Shown: piece by piece, positions 1,209 through 38,790 of the stretch | Layout: each line of letters begins with the position of its first letter | How positions within the stretch are numbered: the first letter of the stretch is position 1 | Virus record (IMG/VR): IMGVR_UViG_2737471829_000005 | DNA: 44,545 nucleotides | From: a virus | Lineage: Duplodnaviria > Heunggongvirae > Uroviricota > Caudoviricetes | Direction: 5' to 3' (one strand) | Program-made: the position numbers and the translations under genes | Notes under the pieces: generated by a model | Database searches by the model: none | Told to the model about the DNA's origin: nothing | What the model saw: the letters and a program-made list of their open reading frames with translations, nothing else

Positions 1209-1233
1209 ATAAAAAAGGCCCCCGAAGGGGCCT
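1209..1233 (-). terminator. Intrinsic terminator; functional on the minus strand, hairpin also present on plus
   Basis: aggcccc-cgaa-ggggcct, 7-bp GC stem, preceded by A6 on plus, giving a U-run on minus. Confidence 0.55.
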
Positions 1234-1238
1234 AATCG

Positions 1239-1361
1239 CTACTTGCTGCTAATGTTTATCGTCACATTCAGAGCGTTATCAGTAATCTTCCAACCCTCCC
1301 CATGTGGCGTAAACAAAGCTCCAGTAACAACGATAAAAATACACATGTAGTATTTTTTCAT
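1239..1361 (-). CDS. Small hydrophobic peptide of about 40 aa (MKKYYMCIFIVVTGALFT...); possible membrane peptide or type I toxin candidate
   Basis: Internal ATG at 1361 with AAGGG RBS 7 nt upstream; hydrophobic N-terminus; terminator directly downstream. Confidence 0.25.
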   Translation of the reverse strand: MKKYYMCIFIVVTGALFTPHGEGWKITDNALNVTINISSK

Positions 1362-1425
1362 TGTGTGGCCCTTACAGGCCGTTTCACGGCATCCCCACCG
1401 ACGAAAATGACGCGAGAGCAAGCAC

Positions 1426-1445
1426 GCTGTTTGTGCCTGCGTGGT
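1426..1445 (+). repeat. Direct repeat copy 1 (gctgtttgtgcctgcgtggt)
   Basis: 19/20 identical to 1676-1695, 250 bp apart, in an ORF-poor region. Confidence 0.5.
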
Positions 1446-1633
1446 ACGGCAAGTGGATAATCCTTTCCTGAAAGTCAGTGCCCGGGTGCGAATCGGCGGA
1501 AAGGCCCCAAGCCATATTACACGTCATACCCTTCATAATGAAGGAATAAAAAACGCTTTTATTACATAAGATTACACGTAAATAAGTTAAAAACCTTCAT
1601 TTTGCATGAGCTAATGAGCTAAATTTTTTTATA

Positions 1634-2514: not shown

Positions 2515-2616
2515 AAATGCGCCATTGGTGGACACTTTCCGAGCCGTAGCAAAATCTACGGCCGGGATTAGCCTCCTGAATAACACGATGGCGCATACCG
2601 CGTTAGCGGTTTTTTT
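2515..2616 (+). ncRNA. Candidate small regulatory RNA upstream of the small ORF and antirepressor (P1 c4-like position)
   Basis: TTGACA at 2508-2513; internal hairpin gccgtag...ctacggc; terminator-like hairpin plus T-run at 2597-2616; the -10 is poor. Confidence 0.25.
2597..2616 (+). terminator. Short intrinsic-terminator-like hairpin with T-run
   Basis: accgc-gtta-gcggt followed by T6. Confidence 0.4.
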
Positions 2617-2778
2617 ATGCGTAGAGCACTGTTACGCCCAAATTATGGTGGGTCGTACAGGGGCGGAGAAATCCGCGCCGGTTCGTCATTGTGTCCGGTA
2701 AGGCTAACCCTGTACGGCTCACCACCATTTGATTAGCCTCGAATGGCGGTGATAGTTCCATATACTGGAGATATCACA

Positions 2779-5801: not shown

Positions 5802-6101
5802 TCAGATGTTAAACGCTATTCGTTTTCCTGTGGGAAGCTCAACATCCAGGCTTAATTTGCCTCCCATAGCTTCAACGTAACGCTTTAATGTCGCCAGCTT
5901 TAAATCATTTCCGCGCTGCTCCAGCTTTGTTACTGCTGGCTGGCTTATACCCATCGCCTCAGCAACCTGTTTTTGTGATAACTGGAGTTCTTCACGCATC
6001 ATCTGCAAGCCGACCTCAAGAATCATCTCATCTGCCATTTCTTTAATTCGCGCCTGGCTTTCAGGTGAACGGCTGGCAATCACCTCATCTAATGTTCTCA
6101 T
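5802..6101 (-). CDS. HTH (XRE-type) antitoxin, HigA-like
   Basis: 99-aa ORF with HTH motif; overlaps the upstream toxin-like gene by 1 nt. Confidence 0.7.
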   Translation of the reverse strand: MRTLDEVIASRSPESQARIKEMADEMILEVGLQMMREELQLSQKQVAEAMGISQPAVTKLEQRGNDLKLATLKRYVEAMGGKLSLDVELPTGKRIAFNI

Positions 6102-6448
6102 TACTTGCTCTCCAGTGTGTTCAGATGTGCTGCAAACTCATCCTCAGCTATACGCACCAGTTTTTCATAAAACCGTTTATCGTTACTTTTGTCTCCTGCA
6201 CAAAGAACGATGGCCCGGCGAATCGGATCGAACGCATAAAAGGCTCTTATCGGACGGCCAGAAAACTGAACGCGAAGCTCTTTCATATTTTTGTACCGAG
6301 AACCTTTTACGGTATCGGCATATGGCCTGGGTAACTCAGGTCCGTAAACCTGTAGCTTTTTCAAATCAGCCAAAACCTTTTCCTGAAGAGCGTCTTCTTG
6401 CTCATTTAGCCAGTCGTCAAATCGCTGGCTAAAAAGTACCGTCCACAT
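6101..6448 (-). CDS. RelE/HigB-superfamily toxin (Gp49-like addiction-module killer)
   Basis: About 115 aa; toxin-first order with HTH antitoxin downstream; ATG at 6448 (the ORF track start at 6454 is TTG). Confidence 0.65.
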   Translation of the reverse strand: MWTVLFSQRFDDWLNEQEDALQEKVLADLKKLQVYGPELPRPYADTVKGSRYKNMKELRVQFSGRPIRAFYAFDPIRRAIVLCAGDKSNDKRFYEKLVRIAEDEFAAHLNTLESK

Positions 6449-6456
6449 GCTCAATC

Positions 6457-7909: not shown

Positions 7910-8887
7910 TTAATGTTGGAGTGATTTCCAGGTCTTTCTTAGCCTGTTATAACGCTGCTCAACGAGGGATCGTAAATATGCAAGGTCAGCACCAGGATAC
8001 ATGCCATCAGCAAATTCCTGGCTAACCTCTCTAGTGATTTGATGACGAAGTTCGGCCTCTCCCTTTTCCTGAACAAGACGCGCAGCTCTCTCCGCTGCTT
8101 TCTGTTTTGCCTTTATCTCTCTGGCCGTCTTCCTCTGACGCCATACATTCTCCATCTGCTCCTGAATAACAATACGCTTATAATCAGCCTCCGTTATCGC
8201 TTTTTTAAGCCGTTCGCTATTCTTCGCATTGAAGTAATTAAGTTTCTGGCTAACCGCACGTCTCCATGCTTGTTCAGTAATACCAACGGTTTCCAGCAGT
8301 TGATCACGAATCTCTATTTTCGCTGGCCAATACTGTTTATTCACCCGATCCCAGCGACGTTCATAATCAATAAAACCTAACGCTTTCAGTTGCGACAACG
8401 CCCTTGTACAGCGCGTTATAGACTTGTTCCCAGCTTCGGATACGGTAGACAGGCCGCAAAAATCAGCCAACGCCTCAGCACTAGCCAGAACCCGCTTAGA
8501 AATGATGTTTACATGGTGCAAAATCGCAGCGATCACAGCATTAATCGCCCGACGACGATGCTCGTTTATCCGGCGCTTCCGCTCTGACGGTTGATTAACG
8601 TAGAACGCAACCTCACACGTAAGATCACGCCCATTAATGCGCTGTAAAGCATCAGATAACACCAGCGGCAGCTTGTGCGTATGGTGCTTTGGAGGCTGGA
8701 ACTCCGGCGACAAATTACAAACGTAAGCTGAACGTAGAGACGGCATTGGTCTATCCATATGTTCGCTCTTGCGTCCACGGAAAACCAACGTATAATGGGA
8801 GTTGTCGAGGCGCCCATGGTTAATTGTTGGTTTTCCGTGGATGTCGCAAGAAGCCCGCAGATTTATCTGCGGGCTTTTTGTTTCCAT
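7910..8887 (-). CDS. repA: Replication initiator RepA, IncFII (RepA1) family; true start may be internal near 8758
   Basis: Central block CGLSTVSEAGNKSITRCTRALSQLKALGFIDY matches the conserved core of IncFII RepA1 as recalled; basic coiled C-terminus. Confidence 0.75.
   Translation of the reverse strand: METKSPQINLRASCDIHGKPTINHGRLDNSHYTLVFRGRKSEHMDRPMPSLRSAYVCNLSPEFQPPKHHTHKLPLVLSDALQRINGRDLTCEVAFYVNQPSERKRRINEHRRRAINAVIAAILHHVNIISKRVLASAEALADFCGLSTVSEAGNKSITRCTRALSQLKALGFIDYERRWDRVNKQYWPAKIEIRDQLLETVGITEQAWRRAVSQKLNYFNAKNSERLKKAITEADYKRIVIQEQMENVWRQRKTAREIKAKQKAAERAARLVQEKGEAELRHQITREVSQEFADGMYPGADLAYLRSLVEQRYNRLRKTWKSLQH
8769..8796 (+). promoter_or_regulatory. Near-consensus sigma70 promoter antisense to the repA 5' region
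   Basis: TTGCGT, 16-bp spacer, TATAAT. Confidence 0.55.
8803..8880 (+). ncRNA. Candidate CopA-like antisense RNA of about 78 nt
   Basis: Promoter 8769-8796 and strong terminator 8853-8883 bracket a short plus-strand transcript antisense to the repA 5' end. Confidence 0.5.
8853..8883 (+). terminator. Intrinsic terminator of the candidate antisense RNA
   Basis: gcccgcag-atttat-ctgcgggc followed by TTTTTGTTT. Confidence 0.65.
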
Positions 8888-8922
8888 ATCTGGTCACTTT
8901 CCAACCAGACACCCACAATCAT

Positions 8923-8939
8923 AACCACGTTACGTGGTT
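8923..8939. promoter_or_regulatory. Perfect 8-bp inverted repeat aaccacgt-t-acgtggtt upstream of repA; operator candidate
   Basis: Palindrome read directly; two GATC sites nearby at 8982-9000. Confidence 0.35.
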
Positions 8940-9068
8940 TTAAGAGAACTCTACCACAACACTTTCGGTCATGCACGAAGTCTCTCACTGATCGAACGAT
9001 AATCCACCAGTAAAAGGATCTAAATTGGATCTCGTTTTGCGAGCATCATACTACTGGCCTAACTCCAG

Positions 9069-9623
9069 TCAATGATTCCCAGCCGGAAACCTGCGGTAAA
9101 GCGTGGATAAGGTAACATCGAAGATAATCGCTATCCGCTTACGTGAAACACCATTCGCAATAAGCCTTCCGATCTGTTCCCATTGCTCTGGTGCCAGCTT
9201 TGAGCGACGTCCTCCTATCCTGCCGTTAGCCCTTGCCACCGCCAATCCTGCACGCGTTCTTTCAATCATATTTTCCCGCTCCATCTCTGCGACTGCACTC
9301 AGCATCGTGTAGGCAAAGCGGCCAATTGAAGTGCTAATTTTTATCCCTTCCGTAATCGAAATAAACTCAATGTTGTTTGATAAAAAATGGTTAAGTAAAT
9401 CAACAAGATGAATCAGAGAACGCCCCATTCGATCCAGCTTCCAGACAATAACCGTATCGCCCGGCCGTAGCACCTTAAGTAGCTTATCAAGCCCTGGCCG
9501 TTTTGATTTAGCACCGGATATTTTATCTTCAAAAATCCGGTCACATCCTGAACTCCTGAGCGCCTCCAGTTGTAATTCCAAATTCTGGTCAAAAGTTGAC
9601 ACCCTCGCATAACCATATTGCAT
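9069..9623 (-). CDS. Serine DNA invertase of the Cin/Gin/Hin/Pin family
   Basis: 184-aa ORF starting MQYGYARVSTFDQ with catalytic serine context and C-terminal HTH; lies next to an inverted-repeat-flanked tail-fibre segment. Confidence 0.9.
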   Translation of the reverse strand: MQYGYARVSTFDQNLELQLEALRSSGCDRIFEDKISGAKSKRPGLDKLLKVLRPGDTVIVWKLDRMGRSLIHLVDLLNHFLSNNIEFISITEGIKISTSIGRFAYTMLSAVAEMERENMIERTRAGLAVARANGRIGGRRSKLAPEQWEQIGRLIANGVSRKRIAIIFDVTLSTLYRRFPAGNH

Positions 9624-9696
9624 ACTTTCTAAACCGCGATTGTTGCTAAAAGCGGGAAAAAATATCGTTCAGACGACACAGAGGCAATTCGCAAAA

Positions 9697-9769
9697 ACCT
9701 CGGTTTACAGGAAACGGTAAATCAGGCTTCTGGTGCGTTGCAGAAAAACCAGAATGGCGCAGATATTCC
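9697..9769. repeat. Left inverted repeat of the invertible segment; contains the crossover site
   Basis: 73 bp, reverse complement identical to 12679-12751. Confidence 0.85.
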
Positions 9770-10658
9770 GGGAAAAGATACCTTCACCAAAAATATTGGG
9801 GCCTGCCGCGCATATAGCGCATGGCTGAATATTGGTGGCGATAGTCAGGTCTGGACAACCGCGCAATTTATTTCGTGGCTGGAGAGTCAGGGAGCATTTA
9901 ACCATCCTTACTGGATGTGCAAAGGCTCATGGGCTTATGCAAATAATAAGGTCATTACAGATACAGGTTGCGGAAATATTTGTCTTGCAGGTGCTGTGGT
10001 GGAAGTTATTGGCACTCGCGGCGCAATGACCATACGCGTTACCACGCCGAGCACGTCCAGCGGTGGCGGAATTACTAACGCTCAATTCACTTATATTAAT
10101 CATGGTGATGCTTATGCTCCTGGCTGGCGACGAGACTACAACACGAAAAATCAACAACCTGCATTTGCTTTAGGGCAAACAGGAAGCACTGTCGGAAATG
10201 ATAAAGCTGTTGGCTGGAACTGGAATAGCGGGGTCTATAACGCAAACATTGGTGGCGCATCGACATTAATCCTCCACTTCAATATGAATGCGGGGAGCTG
10301 CCCTGCTGTACAGTTCCGCGTGAATTACAGGAACGGCGGCATTTTTTATCGTTCAGCGCGTGATGGTTATGGATTTGAGGCTGACTGGTCAGAGTTTTAC
10401 ACCACGACCCGCAAACCCTCTGCGGGAGATGTTGGTGCATACACGCAGGCAGAATGTAACTCAAGGTTTATTACAGGTATTCGCCTTGGCGGTCTGTCAT
10501 CTGTTCAGACATGGAATGGCCCCGGCTGGTCTGACAGGTCAGGTTATGTCGTTACGGGTTCAGTTAACGGAAACCGTGATGAATTAATTGATACAACACA
10601 GGCAAGGCCAATTCAGTATTGCATTAATGGGACGTGGTATAACGCGGGGAGTATTTAA
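9738..10658 (+). CDS. Alternative tail-fibre C-terminal variable segment (Sv'); silent in this orientation
   Basis: Shares the junction peptide ASGALQKNQNGADIP and a similar C-terminus (PIQ.YINGTWYN) with the expressed fibre; no own promoter or start. Confidence 0.75.
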   Translation: MQKNQNGADIPGKDTFTKNIGACRAYSAWLNIGGDSQVWTTAQFISWLESQGAFNHPYWMCKGSWAYANNKVITDTGCGNICLAGAVVEVIGTRGAMTIRVTTPSTSSGGGITNAQFTYINHGDAYAPGWRRDYNTKNQQPAFALGQTGSTVGNDKAVGWNWNSGVYNANIGGASTLILHFNMNAGSCPAVQFRVNYRNGGIFYRSARDGYGFEADWSEFYTTTRKPSAGDVGAYTQAECNSRFITGIRLGGLSSVQTWNGPGWSDRSGYVVTGSVNGNRDELIDTTQARPIQYCINGTWYNAGSI

Positions 10659-10660
10659 CG

Positions 10661-11194
10661 ATGATGCACTTAAAAAACATTACTGCTGGCAACCCTAAAA
10701 CAAAAGAGCAATACCAGCTAACAAAGCAATTTAACATCAAATGGCTTTATTCAGATGATGGAAAAAACTGGTATGAGGAACAAAAGAATTTCCAGCCAGA
10801 CACTTTGAAAATGGTCTATGACCATAACGGCGTTATTATTTGTATTGAAAAGGATGTTTCAGCAATTAATCCGGAAGGCGCAAGCGTCGTTGAATTACCT
10901 GATATTACAGCAAATCGCCGGGCTGATATTTCGGGGAAATGGTTGTTCAAAGATGGCGTAGTGATAAAGCGAACTTATACCGAGGAAGAGCAGAGGCAAC
11001 AAGCGGAAAATGAAAAGCAAAGCCTGCTACAGCTCGTCAGGGATAAAACCCAGCTATGGGACTCACAGCTACGGCTGGGTATCATTTCCAACGAGAATAA
11101 ACAAAAATTAACCGAGTGGATGCTCTATGCGCAGAAGGTCGAATCCACAGACACCTCCAGCCTGCCAGTAACGTTTCCAGAACAACCAGAATGA
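10661..11194 (+). CDS. Tail-fibre assembly chaperone (U'), alternative copy
   Basis: 177 aa; paralogue of 11223-11750. Confidence 0.8.
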   Translation: MMHLKNITAGNPKTKEQYQLTKQFNIKWLYSDDGKNWYEEQKNFQPDTLKMVYDHNGVIICIEKDVSAINPEGASVVELPDITANRRADISGKWLFKDGVVIKRTYTEEEQRQQAENEKQSLLQLVRDKTQLWDSQLRLGIISNENKQKLTEWMLYAQKVESTDTSSLPVTFPEQPE

Positions 11195-11197
11195 AAC

Positions 11198-11226
11198 AAG
11201 GCCCGCTATCGGGCCTTAATTTTTAT
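11198..11226. terminator. Bidirectional terminator between the convergent chaperone genes
   Basis: aaggcccg-ctat-cgggcctt followed by a T-rich run. Confidence 0.55.
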
Positions 11227-11750
11227 TCAGGCTTTTGTGGCCATTCAGGATTTGCCGTATCCACACGGCTGACCAGAACGCTGTAGCGTTCCCATGCTTC
11301 CAGTCGTGTGCGTTCCTCGTCTGTTGCCATATTCAGCCTGACAGCGCGTTCCAGCGGCTGGATGACTGATTCAGCTTCGGAAATCAACGCGGCCTTTTGT
11401 GATTCGGCCTGTTGTTGCTGTTCGTCAGCCGTATAAATCCGCTTAATCACAGCACCATCCTTAAACATCCATTTACCTGAGTCATCAGCACGTCGGTTGG
11501 CGGTAATATCAGGAACCTCGACAACGCTAAAACCTTCAGGGTTAAGCGTGGAGGCATCTTTGGTGATGGCGGCAATAATATTATTTTCGTCGTATACAAT
11601 CTTTATGGTGTCGTCCTGAAAGTTATTTACTTCCTCATACCAGTTTTTACCGTCTTCTGTATATAACCAGATAACATCAAAATTCTTTGTTAGCTGATAT
11701 TGCTCTTTTGTTTTTGGATTTCCTGACTTAATATTTTTTAAATGCTGCAT
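11223..11750 (-). CDS. Tail-fibre assembly chaperone (U), expressed copy
   Basis: 175 aa; paralogue of U'; directly downstream of the tail-fibre gene. Confidence 0.8.
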
Positions 11751-11753
11751 AAT

Positions 11754-14108
11754 TTACACCTGTGCGACGTTATACCATGTGCCATTGATGTATTTTTGTA
11801 TTGGTCTGAAGATGGCTTCATCATCGCCATCTACTTCACCAATGATTCTTAATCCGGTAATTGCGTGTCCGGCTTTTTCATAACGACCACCACGCGCCAT
11901 CAATTGAACAACACGCGTACCCAGGCGAACATCTTTCACATAACGGGAATCAAAGTTACCGTAATCCGAGGGGTTAACACGCCCTGTAATATTTATGGTT
12001 TTATTACTTTGAATGCTGCCGGAGACAAAGCGCATAACATGGACGTTATTAGCATAAACGTCCAGATTACCGTCGCCATTTTGTTTAAAGCCCGTGTCAT
12101 TATCACCCAAAACAATCGAGTTACCGCCAAGAGCACTGGATGTTCCGATGCCCAGTGCACCATTCAATTGACCTCCAGATAATGACAACGCCCCAACATC
12201 AGCAGCAGTCGGTTTAATGTGCGAACTGTAAATTACATATACAGTTCCATCTGTCAGGCCTTTTGGTTTATTCGCTGTATAAGTTGGTGATGTATGAATC
12301 GTTACGCTGGCGTTACTGGTATAATCCCACTGAATATTAACACCTGTGGCGTAATTACCTATTTCAACATAAACATCATAGGTATCACCGGATGTATTCA
12401 CCCATGCAAAATTAGTAAATCCAACCGATGTCCGTCGCCATAACGCACCAGTAAGACCTTTTGGATTTCCATTTCCCGCACGAAGAACAAGTTCAGATAT
12501 ACCAGCCTGCATAGGGGAGTTAACATTATATCCAGCACCACCAATCAGGCTTATGTAAACCACGGAACTGGCCTGGGGCATGGTTACAGTTGCCAGCCTG
12601 AACCATCCTGTACCACCACTAAAAGACATGGTTGTTGAATTTGTTGCTCCAATATTGCGCAGGAATAATCTTTTATCAGGAATATCTGCGCCATTCTGGT
12701 TTTTCTGCAACGCACCAGAAGCCTGATTTACCGTTTCCTGTAAACCGAGGTATTCGATAACGGCGGCAACGGTCGATTTCGCAAGAATATCCCGCCCGAC
12801 TTTTGTCAGAGTTGCCAGGCTGGCGACATCATTCCCCGTAAAATACGGAAACCTGTCTGCCGCAGTAGCAAGCCCGGCCAGCGCCGTCAGGGTGGCATCT
12901 TTCGGTTGCTTACCCGCAAGCGCGTTAGTCATGGTGGTCGCAAAATTCGGGTCGTTGCCCAACGCCGCAGCCAGCTCGTTCAGCGTATTTAGTGCGTCAG
13001 GCGACGAGTCCACGAGGGCAGCGATCGCAGCCATAACATAAGCCGTGCTTGCGATCTGAGTATTGTTAGTACCTTTTGGCGCAGTTGGTGTTGTTGGTGT
13101 TCCGGTCAGCGCAGGACTGTTTAAGGGCGCTTTCTTGTTCGTTTCATCCATTACCGCCTTAACAGCTTTTGGTGTCGCAGCCAGCGTTTCAGACGTGCTG
13201 TTAGTGGCACTACTGAGCTGAGTTATTCCCCTTACAGTCAGTGAAGCTACAGGCACATTTGTTATCTGCTCCCACGAATGCGTGTGATTGGACGGAGCCT
13301 TTCCGGCCGCAAGATCATACGCTGCCTTAACAGCCTTTGGTGTTGCTGCTAGCGTTTCAGACGTGCTGTTGGTGGCACTACTGAGCTGAACAATCCCTTT
13401 TCGCGCTGTGGTAGCGTCCTGTGCGGTGTATTTAGCGTTAGCAAGGTCATATGCTGCCTTAACAGCCTTAGGCGTCGCAGCAAGCGTTTCAGACGCGCTA
13501 TTGGTGGCGCTGCTAAGTTGAACAAAGCCTTTTGAGGTTAAAGTTGCATCAGGATGATTACGTGATTGCTCATGTTTCACAATGGCTTGCTTAAGCCGCT
13601 TTGCTGAAACAGCAAGGGAATCATCTGTACCTGCCTCAATTTCTTGTTCATTAGCAAATCTTGCCACCCCAACAACAGTTTCGGTCGCGGGAGGATTAAT
13701 AAACTCAATATCACCAAATGTAATATTTTTAGTATCAAGAGTCTTAATTGCTATATCACTTGATATTAAAGCGATAGTAGATGATGCTTTATTTATTATT
13801 GCTTGTTCTTGTGAGTATACAGCAAACAACGCCCCCTTATTCGTATACAATCCTATTGTATGGACAACATACTCATCTTTACTATCATCCTTCGCTGTTA
13901 CATGAATTGTATCAGGGGAAACAACTTTGCCACCTATTGTGGTAAGTCGTTTTATTTCGTTTGTTATATTTGTTTGTGAGGTTGACGTGACATAATATCT
14001 ACTACCTAAACCAACAGAAACAATCTCAACTTTATTTGTTCCTGTTTTGTTGGCATTAACCAGCTCCTGACGCCCGGCGTCAGTCATCGTAAATAATAAT
14101 TTACTCAC
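11754..14108 (-). CDS. Tail fibre protein (S); constant N-terminal part outside, variable C-terminal part inside the invertible segment
   Basis: 784 aa; repeat-rich; crossover repeat lies inside the ORF at 12679-12751. Confidence 0.85.
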   Translation of the reverse strand: MSKLLFTMTDAGRQELVNANKTGTNKVEIVSVGLGSRYYVTSTSQTNITNEIKRLTTIGGKVVSPDTIHVTAKDDSKDEYVVHTIGLYTNKGALFAVYSQEQAIINKASSTIALISSDIAIKTLDTKNITFGDIEFINPPATETVVGVARFANEQEIEAGTDDSLAVSAKRLKQAIVKHEQSRNHPDATLTSKGFVQLSSATNSASETLAATPKAVKAAYDLANAKYTAQDATTARKGIVQLSSATNSTSETLAATPKAVKAAYDLAAGKAPSNHTHSWEQITNVPVASLTVRGITQLSSATNSTSETLAATPKAVKAVMDETNKKAPLNSPALTGTPTTPTAPKGTNNTQIASTAYVMAAIAALVDSSPDALNTLNELAAALGNDPNFATTMTNALAGKQPKDATLTALAGLATAADRFPYFTGNDVASLATLTKVGRDILAKSTVAAVIEYLGLQETVNQASGALQKNQNGADIPDKRLFLRNIGATNSTTMSFSGGTGWFRLATVTMPQASSVVYISLIGGAGYNVNSPMQAGISELVLRAGNGNPKGLTGALWRRTSVGFTNFAWVNTSGDTYDVYVEIGNYATGVNIQWDYTSNASVTIHTSPTYTANKPKGLTDGTVYVIYSSHIKPTAADVGALSLSGGQLNGALGIGTSSALGGNSIVLGDNDTGFKQNGDGNLDVYANNVHVMRFVSGSIQSNKTINITGRVNPSDYGNFDSRYVKDVRLGTRVVQLMARGGRYEKAGHAITGLRIIGEVDGDDEAIFRPIQKYINGTWYNVAQV
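12679..12751. repeat. Right inverted repeat of the invertible segment, inside the tail-fibre ORF
   Basis: Reverse complement identical to 9697-9769. Confidence 0.85.
13156..13527 (-). repeat. Three tandem coding repeats (about 70 nt conserved cores) inside the tail-fibre gene
   Basis: Encode the repeated peptide SSATNS.SETLAATPKAVKA. Confidence 0.7.
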
Positions 14109-14138
14109 GCTTAATTCCTTGAATTAACAAATTGCGAA

Positions 14139-14720
14139 TTAGCACTCGCCAATTAATCGTACATAAGACACAGGCTGACAAGCACCAACAATACCGACAC
14201 CACCAGAAACATTGGCTGCTTGCGAAAATGTAAATAATGTTCTTGCCGACTTTGCGCTCTTGATACTTCTTAACGTATCTTCCAACATTTCTTTCGAAGG
14301 AACGGCACCATCAAAAGAGTTAATCGAAGCAACAATTGAGGCTGTATATGGCTCGCCAGGTGGTGATGTTTCAAACCATTCTGTTATGTTTACCTCTCCA
14401 CCCAAGCTATTTACTACATCTTCAACCGCTGCCCTTGTACCCTTTATTCGCTTTGTTCGTATTATTGATTTAAAAACAGAACGCTTTAACGATACAGGCC
14501 AACTATCCCTCCATGTATCAGCATTCCATTGCCAAGCTAAATGATCGAGAACAACTGAGTCCAGGTTATCAACAACGCTATATATTTCTGTCTTATATAT
14601 TAAATTGTTAATTGCTTGTAGTTCATCATCGATAGCTTTCGACATAGCTATCACGTTCGGATCTCTAGCTAAGTTAGGAGGTAAAACATCCAACAAGCTA
14701 ACATTAAAGATATCAGCCAT
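14139..14720 (-). CDS. Baseplate/tail protein, P2 gpI family
   Basis: 193 aa; LAWQWNADTWRDSWP and ITEWFETSPPG resemble conserved gpI blocks. Confidence 0.8.
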   Translation of the reverse strand: MADIFNVSLLDVLPPNLARDPNVIAMSKAIDDELQAINNLIYKTEIYSVVDNLDSVVLDHLAWQWNADTWRDSWPVSLKRSVFKSIIRTKRIKGTRAAVEDVVNSLGGEVNITEWFETSPPGEPYTASIVASINSFDGAVPSKEMLEDTLRSIKSAKSARTLFTFSQAANVSGGVGIVGACQPVSYVRLIGEC

Positions 14721-38714: not shown

Positions 38715-38790
38715 TGGTGGCCCCTACCGGATTTGAACCGATGACCGTGCGATTATGAGTCGCCTGCTCTAACCACTAAGCTAAGGGGCC
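38715..38790 (-). tRNA. tRNA with CAU anticodon (Ile2-like or Met elongator; not distinguishable by eye)
   Basis: Reverse complement is GGCCCCTTAGCTTAGTGGTTAGAGCAGGCGACTCATAATCGCACGGTCATCGGTTCAAATCCGGTAGGGGCCACCA: 7-bp acceptor stem, D-arm, CTCATAA anticodon loop, GGTTCAAATCC T-arm, encoded CCA. Confidence 0.85.

Follow-up and report, generated by a model that had tools for sequence, protein, structure and literature searches.

Does a phage genome that carries two opposed tail-fibre tips and a DNA invertase still switch between them, and would the switch change the bacteria that the phage infects? This question is raised by positions 9,069 to 14,108 of IMG/VR record IMGVR_UViG_2737471829_000005, a 44,545-nucleotide stretch of DNA from a tailed virus (Caudoviricetes), which in its whole length is called the window here. 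An earlier inspection of the letters and translated reading frames, made without database searches (the sequence-only reading), had proposed that the region is an invertible tail-fibre segment acting as a host-range switch. We are now highly confident that the region is a working host-range switch of the Mu G-segment type and that its carrier is a myovirus phage-plasmid of ~49 kb that encodes an IncFII-type RepA. The inversion of tail-fibre genes has been a textbook mechanism since the 1980s. Two relatives of the window are referred to throughout. The window is collinear with Yersinia phage vB_YpM_39 (OR545053, 49,027 bp) and ~99% identical to it, and it shares 96–99% identity across most of its backbone with a 48,488-bp plasmid of Escherichia coli ATCC 25922.

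The invertible segment and its two fibre cassettes

The segment is framed by two arms, at 9697–9769 (left) and 12679–12751 (right). When compared directly, arm to arm, they were exact reverse complements over 73 bp, in agreement with the perfect inverted repeats claimed by the sequence-only reading. A repeat search over 8000–14500 that tolerated a few flanking mismatches recovered the same pair as a longer, imperfect repeat of 83 nt at 95% identity (arms 9694–9776 and 12672–12754). No comparable repeat was found anywhere else in 8000–14500, and a chance origin of the 73-bp repeat is therefore excluded. With both arms counted, the invertible segment measures 3055 bp, the length first proposed, and the invertase open reading frame (ORF) lies 73 bp from the left arm. 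The repeat encodes a 24-residue peptide, LGLQETVNQASGALQKNQNGADIP. The earlier claim that one peptide is encoded at both junctions was right; the peptide given for it was too short.

The arms differ from those of the 99% identical phage vB_YpM_39 at four clustered positions in the left arm (9734, 9737, 9740 and 9755), and it is these changes that make the arms of the window perfect. The S′v-side arm of vB_YpM_39 retains the Mu-like bases C, A, A and C, and the corresponding bases in the window all match the Sv-side arm. The perfect stretch in vB_YpM_39 is only ~37 bp long, counted by hand up to the first of the four differences. This pattern points to gene conversion between the two arms of the window.

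Between the arms lie two opposed sets of a fibre C-terminus and a chaperone, as had been claimed. The full expressed fibre gene occupies 11754–14108 on the minus strand and is a single ORF of 784 aa. It consists of a constant N-terminal part, Sc (12752–14108, minus strand; three Phage_fiber_2 repeats, 1.7e-59), which lies outside the segment, and a P88-like variable C-terminal part, Sv (11754–12678, minus strand), which is the one currently expressed. The chaperone of the expressed set, U, follows at 11223–11750 on the minus strand (175 aa; Pfam Caudo_TAP 8.4e-37). The silent set reads on the plus strand. Its variable C-terminal part, S′v, with homology to Mu S′v, is in frame from the repeat for 319 aa (9699–10658), and its chaperone, U′, occupies 10661–11194 (177 aa; Pfam Caudo_TAP 3.3e-36). 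Within Sc, at 13141–13533, a 93-nt unit occurs in three diverged copies, 168 and 132 nt apart, which correspond to the three Phage_fiber_2 repeats.

When 9697–12751 was flipped in silico, the long fibre ORF stayed open. The flipped fibre is an uninterrupted protein of 772 aa, against 784 aa for the native one, which bears out the predicted in-frame fusion to the alternative C-terminus. The two fibres have their first 477 aa in common, ending in ...LGLQETVNQASGALQKNQNGADIP, with the repeat-encoded residues counted. In the silent S′v frame, which is open from 9699, the ORF list and a reading of the sequence gave TTG at 9738 as the first start codon, with none earlier. The silent cassette is thus a promoterless, N-terminally incomplete gene part, as expected, and it stays silent. 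RefSeq labels the silent part in one relative as ‘incomplete; missing N-terminus’.

The origin of most of the segment is clear from homology. S′v is 99.1% identical in amino acids to Mu S′v, which belongs to the G(−) fibre, and it matches residues 170–488 of the Mu S/S′ structure (PDB 8ju3) with E = 1.9e-220. U′ is 96.6% identical to Mu U′. U is 94.3% identical to Mu U and matches PDB 5yvq_B with E = 3e-109. At the DNA level, the stretch 9694–11753, which spans S′v, U′ and U, is 94% identical to the G segments of Mu and D108 and 90–95% identical to the C segments of P1, P7 and D6. Sv is distinct from Mu Sv; only its last ~77 aa resemble Mu S, at 49%. Over its last 72 aa it shares 90% identity with P1 Sv. 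It resembles the fibres of P88 and related phages, with 96% identity to Escherichia phage P88 at the DNA level.

At the center of the segment, between the two chaperone genes, lies a G+C-rich hairpin (11197–11218) with 8–9 pairs, six of them G–C. It passes a terminator rule on both strands and folds with −21.9 and −21.1 kcal mol−1 on the two strands (z of −4.7 and −4.3). The T-tract is good on the plus strand and weaker on the minus strand. The bidirectional terminator proposed for this position is thus terminator-like on both strands, with the weaker tract on the minus side.

Inversion and the point of exchange

Mu-type inverted crossover sites were expected from the proposed model, and two were found, with a core identical to that of Mu gix. 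The left gix-like site (9688–9713, plus strand) reads TTCGCAAAAACC TC GGTTTACAGGAA, with its central TC at 9700–9701. The right one (12735–12760, minus strand) reads TTATCGAATACC TC GGTTTACAGGAA, with its central TC at 12747–12748. Each of the two 26-bp sites extends across the outer end of its repeat arm, and the exchange points at the central TC are 3047 bp apart. They have the same core dinucleotide and an equivalent relative orientation, as an inverted pair. Mu gixR is TTATCCAAAACC TC GGTTTACAGGAA; in an alignment, its inner half-site, its TC core and part of its outer half are identical here. Over the inner half-site and core, 13 of 14 bases align identically in all sites and match Mu gixR. 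The perfect repeat is thus shared coding sequence that lies inside the exchange points, and the functional boundaries of the segment are the 26-bp gix-like sites.

A search of the 44.5-kb window with a 19-nt core pattern at up to three mismatches returned two matches, against 0.02 expected. We considered a multi-site system of the shufflon or p15B Min kind and rejected it, since the window holds only these two sites at that threshold. The last 19 nt of U′ (11175–11193), TTCCAGAACAACCAGAATG, match the repeat sequence TTGCAGAAAAACCAGAATG at 17 of 19 positions. This stretch was rejected as an extra crossover site; it is without a gix core, and a match of this quality is expected by chance in a region of such size.

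We then looked for both orientations in deposited sequences. Plasmid and E. coli collections were searched with two junction sequences: the native one, in which the invertase flank and the repeat lead into S′v, and a synthetic inverted one, in which they lead into Sv. Both orientations were found. The invertase lies next to Sv in CP009073, CP117232, CP101926 and CP149501, and in plasmids of the same length from strains ZLWT and NE88. It lies next to S′v in CP158444, CP037450 and the plasmid of strain 25POL (CP081011). CP158444 and CP009073 are independent assemblies of ATCC 25922, both circular and both of 48,488 bp, and one of them carries a block of 3071 bp cleanly inverted relative to the other. 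Their flanks are ~99.95% identical on the same strand, and the 3071-bp block is 99.97% identical on the other strand. A further ATCC 25922 record, NZ_CP032086.1 (linear, 94,204 bp), holds two ~48.5-kb copies, one in each orientation, with the same pattern of flanks and block. The two copies could be a real dimer; more likely they are a concatenated assembly from a population of mixed orientation. The combination of a single fixed orientation and an inactive invertase, which the sequence-only reading had named as the outcome that would speak against a switch, is not what was found: the ATCC 25922 relative occurs in both orientations, and the window invertase is identical to the one on that plasmid at 183 of 184 residues.

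The ATCC 25922 assemblies also locate the exchange. The plasmid repeats carry two polymorphisms. In every assembly a G/A difference 6 nt inside the core moves with the cassette, whereas the bases specific to each arm, 5 nt outside the core, remain in place next to the flank. The exchange therefore falls inside the 10-bp ACCTCGGTTT, which contains the TC core. A crossover within ACCTCGGTTT is the behavior of a serine invertase.

This position bears directly on another way in which the segment could be turned over, namely homologous recombination by host RecA between the 73-bp repeats, with the invertase irrelevant to the process. A perfect identity of 73 bp can support a rare RecA-dependent exchange, and the four clustered changes relative to vB_YpM_39 indicate that the arms have exchanged sequence by conversion. 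However, the exchange in ATCC 25922 lies in the outermost 10 bp with the gix core and not in the 41-bp perfect stretch that homologous exchange would favor. The invertase is also intact, and gix-like sites sit exactly at the mapped point of exchange. We consider it very improbable that RecA drives the inversion.

The invertase and the proposed course of a switch

The gene next to the left arm (9069–9623, minus strand) encodes a small serine recombinase of 184 aa, and it reads away from the invertible segment, as gin does in Mu. Its protein has a Pfam Resolvase domain (2.6e-44, residues 3–135) followed by HTH_7 (2.9e-13, residues 138–181). The closest solved structure is Mu Gin (3uj3/4m6f, E ~1e-61), compared with 1e-31 for gamma-delta resolvase, and the protein aligns without gaps to Gin residues 2–181. 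When it is aligned with Gin, Cin and PinE, all four proteins share residues Y5, R7, S9, D33, R42, D64, R65 and R68. The assignment to the Cin/Gin family made from the letters alone is upheld in that the protein is of the resolvase/invertase type of serine recombinases and keeps Ser9 and the other invariant catalytic residues intact. A search of NCBIfam with the invertase gave no equivalog, and all matches were far below the cut-offs.

DNA invertases of this subclass act together with the host protein Fis. In the Hin system the enhancer, with its two Fis sites, lies within the 5′ end of the recombinase gene, and the crossover sites are of 26 bp with a 2-bp core (PMC3798978). McLean et al. described Gln151, Arg154 and Leu155 of Hin as a Fis-contact patch that is kept in invertases and not in resolvases (PMC3798978). 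This patch is retained in the window invertase as Q150, R153 and L154, invariant with Gin, Cin and PinE. We propose a candidate recombinational enhancer at 9534–9605 on the minus strand (invertase coding nt 19–90), homologous to the stretch that the P1 annotation gives as the Cin enhancer, cin nt 19–90. It contains two 15-bp stretches of the form G-N13-C that align with Mu gin and P1 cin, GTGTCAACTTTTGAC (9588–9602, minus strand) and GTTCAGGATGTGACC (9539–9553, minus strand). By inference from this alignment, they are candidate Fis cores. Among residues identical to Gin, the same codon is used for 8 of 14 in the candidate enhancer against 24 of 83 elsewhere in the gene, a small sample in which a coding constraint on 9534–9605 is not separable from an enhancer constraint. 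We infer that inversion depends on Fis and on an enhancer inside the invertase gene.

Several points weigh against a working switch in the window itself. Only one orientation was seen in the window and in vB_YpM_39, so that the switching activity of the window element is deduced from a near-identical relative. By its sequence, the invertase appears to belong to a divergent branch of the DNA invertase subclass: its identity is 54–55% with Gin, 55% with Cin and 60% with PinE, and these three are 75–82% identical to one another. At the position of Hin Lys47 the window invertase has Asp46 (codon 9486–9488). In the Hin family, basic residues of helix B face the enhancer, residue 47 being Lys in all of 15 invertases and residues 48 and 51 being Lys or Arg (PMC3798978). 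The corresponding residues are D46-K47-...-K50 in the window, K46-R47-...-K50 in Gin and K-K-...-R in both Cin and PinE, so that two of the three are basic here. The enhancer assignment, based on an alignment and a small codon excess, is only suggestive. A promoter scan found no consensus sigma-70 site between the invertase start and the left crossover site. A weak TTGCCT-N17-TATTTT upstream of the invertase, read by eye, agrees at 8 of 12 positions and is below the scan threshold, and it is not claimed as a promoter. Finally, the difference in host range is a predicted consequence, drawn from the 99% identity of S′v to the Mu G(−) fibre and from an Sv that is unrelated.

Some of these points could be read as signs of a frozen relic, an element that inherited all of the parts from an active ancestor and no longer switches, perhaps because the invertase is poorly expressed or its contact with the enhancer is weakened. 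The single orientation shared by the window and its 99% relative vB_YpM_39, the Asp46 in place of a conserved helix-B lysine, and the promoter scan without a consensus promoter upstream of the invertase would all fit such a history. Against it stands the ATCC 25922 plasmid, which is found in both orientations and whose invertase, one residue different, carries the same Asp46. Because that enzyme has the substitution and its plasmid inverts, Asp46 does not abolish function. The crossover sites, the catalytic residues and both cassettes are moreover all intact in the window. A relic thus appears improbable to us, if somewhat less so than inversion by RecA. It is also conceivable, and a little less improbable than a relic, that the invertase, with its 54–60% identity to the classical members and its Asp46, represents a separate branch that took over Mu-type gix sites and has a modified or reduced dependence on Fis and the enhancer; we regard this as unlikely. 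If it were true, the plasmid prophage could switch at a different rate, which would give mixed fibre populations within a single lysogenic culture.

For the working switch that we favor, the following course can be proposed. Late transcription would start upstream of Sc on the minus strand, cross the right site into whichever variable part faces it, continue through the chaperone gene and stop at the central hairpin. In the present orientation, Sc-Sv (784 aa) and U would be made. Dimers of the invertase would bind both gix-like sites (26 bp each) and, probably assisted by a Fis-bound enhancer on the supercoiled plasmid DNA, use Ser9 to cleave at the central TC. One pair of subunits would then rotate by 180 degrees and the DNA would be rejoined, with the 3047 bp between the cores flipped. 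After the flip, Sc-S′v (772 aa) and U′ would be made, and the fibre tip would be essentially that of Mu G(−). Particles of the two states should adsorb to different lipopolysaccharide cores and so infect different enterobacteria. The host ranges of Mu in its G(+) and G(−) states are known from the Mu literature.

The carrier element and comparison with known systems

The element that carries the switch is a myovirus phage-plasmid of ~49 kb. On the minus strand, the upstream neighbors of the fibre gene are P2-type baseplate genes (homologues of I and J). On the other side of the invertase, domain searches identified an IncFII-type RepA replication initiator (7910–8887, minus strand). The ATCC 25922 plasmid encodes full sets for the head, contractile tail, lysis and packaging in addition to RepA, ParA and a toxin–antitoxin pair. 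The record of vB_YpM_39 is that of a phage and names Y. pestis EV76-CN as the host; in its annotation the invertase is called ‘hin’ and the four genes of the segment ‘hypothetical’. A literature search found no publication that describes vB_YpM_39 or the switch of the ATCC 25922 plasmid. A paper on vB_YpM_HQ103 deals with an unrelated 32-kb phage, and one on phage-plasmids of enterotoxigenic E. coli (ETEC) covers P1 and SSU5 types only.

The nature of the carrier is relevant to the question of who benefits from the switch. Two papers report that inversion by the serine recombinases PinQ and PinR of cryptic E. coli prophages blocks phage adsorption (PMC12529663; bioRxiv 10.1101/2025.03.28.646004), and one might suppose that here, too, the fibre-derived products of inversion mainly serve the lysogen by protecting the carrier cell from other phages. 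However, the genes for head, tail, lysis and packaging make the element a complete phage, and its 99% relative was deposited as a phage with the host Y. pestis EV76-CN. Each cassette comprises a whole fibre tip and a chaperone, and one of the two tips is that of Mu G(−). Protection of the lysogen would be at most an additional effect, and we give little credence to its being the main benefit, about as little as to inversion by RecA.

Several other features of the carrier were noted. The 5′ end of repA contains hairpins at 8774–8841 and 8847–8880; an inverted repeat that is perfect over 16 nt and a G+C-rich hairpin bearing a T-tract lie there, and these may belong to an antisense-RNA control of copy number. 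At 5802–6454 on the minus strand there are two small overlapping ORFs, annotated in relatives as a toxin of the HigB2 or RelE/ParE family and then a helix-turn-helix protein, the latter likely being the antitoxin. Matches at the Rfam gathering level were obtained for isrK (2543–2616, plus strand), C4 antisense RNA (2641–2729, plus strand) and ryfA (1211–1509, minus strand). Rfam lists C4 as ‘Gene; antisense’. In the ATCC 25922 relative, a gene with an ORF6N domain is found close to the equivalent region. C4 is the immunity RNA of P1 and P7, and the C4 region of the window may be an antisense-RNA immunity module. A tRNA-Met (CAT) gene at 38715–38790 on the minus strand is annotated in vB_YpM_39 as well.

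The conceptual gain from this locus is small, as the mechanism is a textbook one and one of the cassettes is essentially Mu's own. It is useful chiefly for annotation and for making sense of differences between assemblies and of phage host range. The annotations of deposited relatives do not mark the segment as invertible and describe its silent part as a hypothetical or an incomplete protein. Differences in the fibre region between ATCC 25922 assemblies are biological and are not errors. Where phages like vB_YpM_39 are used on Yersinia or E. coli, their lysates are expected to hold two host-range types, and the fibre tip present after inversion is predictable from Mu G(−).

The closest known system is the G segment of Mu with its invertase Gin. 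The order is the same, Sc-gix-Sv-U-hairpin-U′-S′v-gix-invertase, with the invertase pointing outward. The segment is ~3 kb in both; protein identity reaches 99% for S′v, 97% for U′ and 94% for U, and the crossover sites have an identical inner half-site and TC core. The two systems differ in that Sc and Sv here are unrelated to those of Mu over most of their length, and in the invertase, at 54–55% identity to Gin. The carrier also differs, being a plasmid prophage with RepA here and a transposing phage in the case of Mu. The inverted repeats of Mu are 34 bp long, compared with the perfect 73 bp here.

The C segment of P1, P7 and D6, with the invertase Cin, is likewise an invertible S/U tail-fibre segment on plasmid prophages. 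In P1, U and U′ are 95% identical in protein to those described here, as are the last 72 aa of Sv at 90% and S′v at 86%, and the stretch homologous to the P1 enhancer at cin nt 19–90 is present here. In contrast, cin reads towards the segment, with cixL overlapping its 3′ end, whereas the invertase here reads away. The P1 segment is larger (4.2 kb), its repeats are ~0.6 kb, and the window invertase is 55% identical to Cin. The backbones of P1, P7 and D6 are unrelated to this one and measure 90–100 kb, against ~49 kb here. For D6-like plasmids the fibre inversion region has been described (PMC6799933).

Among the classical invertases the nearest is PinE, at 60%, from the P segment of e14 in E. 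coli K-12, which also lies beside opposed stf/tfa genes for fibre and chaperone. The e14 prophage is chromosomal and defective; its fibre genes have decayed and stfE is a pseudogene, whereas the element here is complete. The Hin/hix system of Salmonella shares the invertase subclass, the 26-bp sites and the 2-bp core (PMC3798978). However, Hin flips a promoter, and the segment described here consists of coding cassettes. In a systematic survey, tail-fibre inversions were confirmed by long reads, among them one in a homologue of the Mu fibre (PMC9881135). Taken together, the switch is an ordinary member of the Mu G/P1 C family that was not previously annotated as such. It is a mosaic: one cassette is that of Mu G(−), Sv is P88-like, Sc is found in a P2-type baseplate context and the invertase is divergent, all of it on a phage-plasmid with an IncFII RepA.

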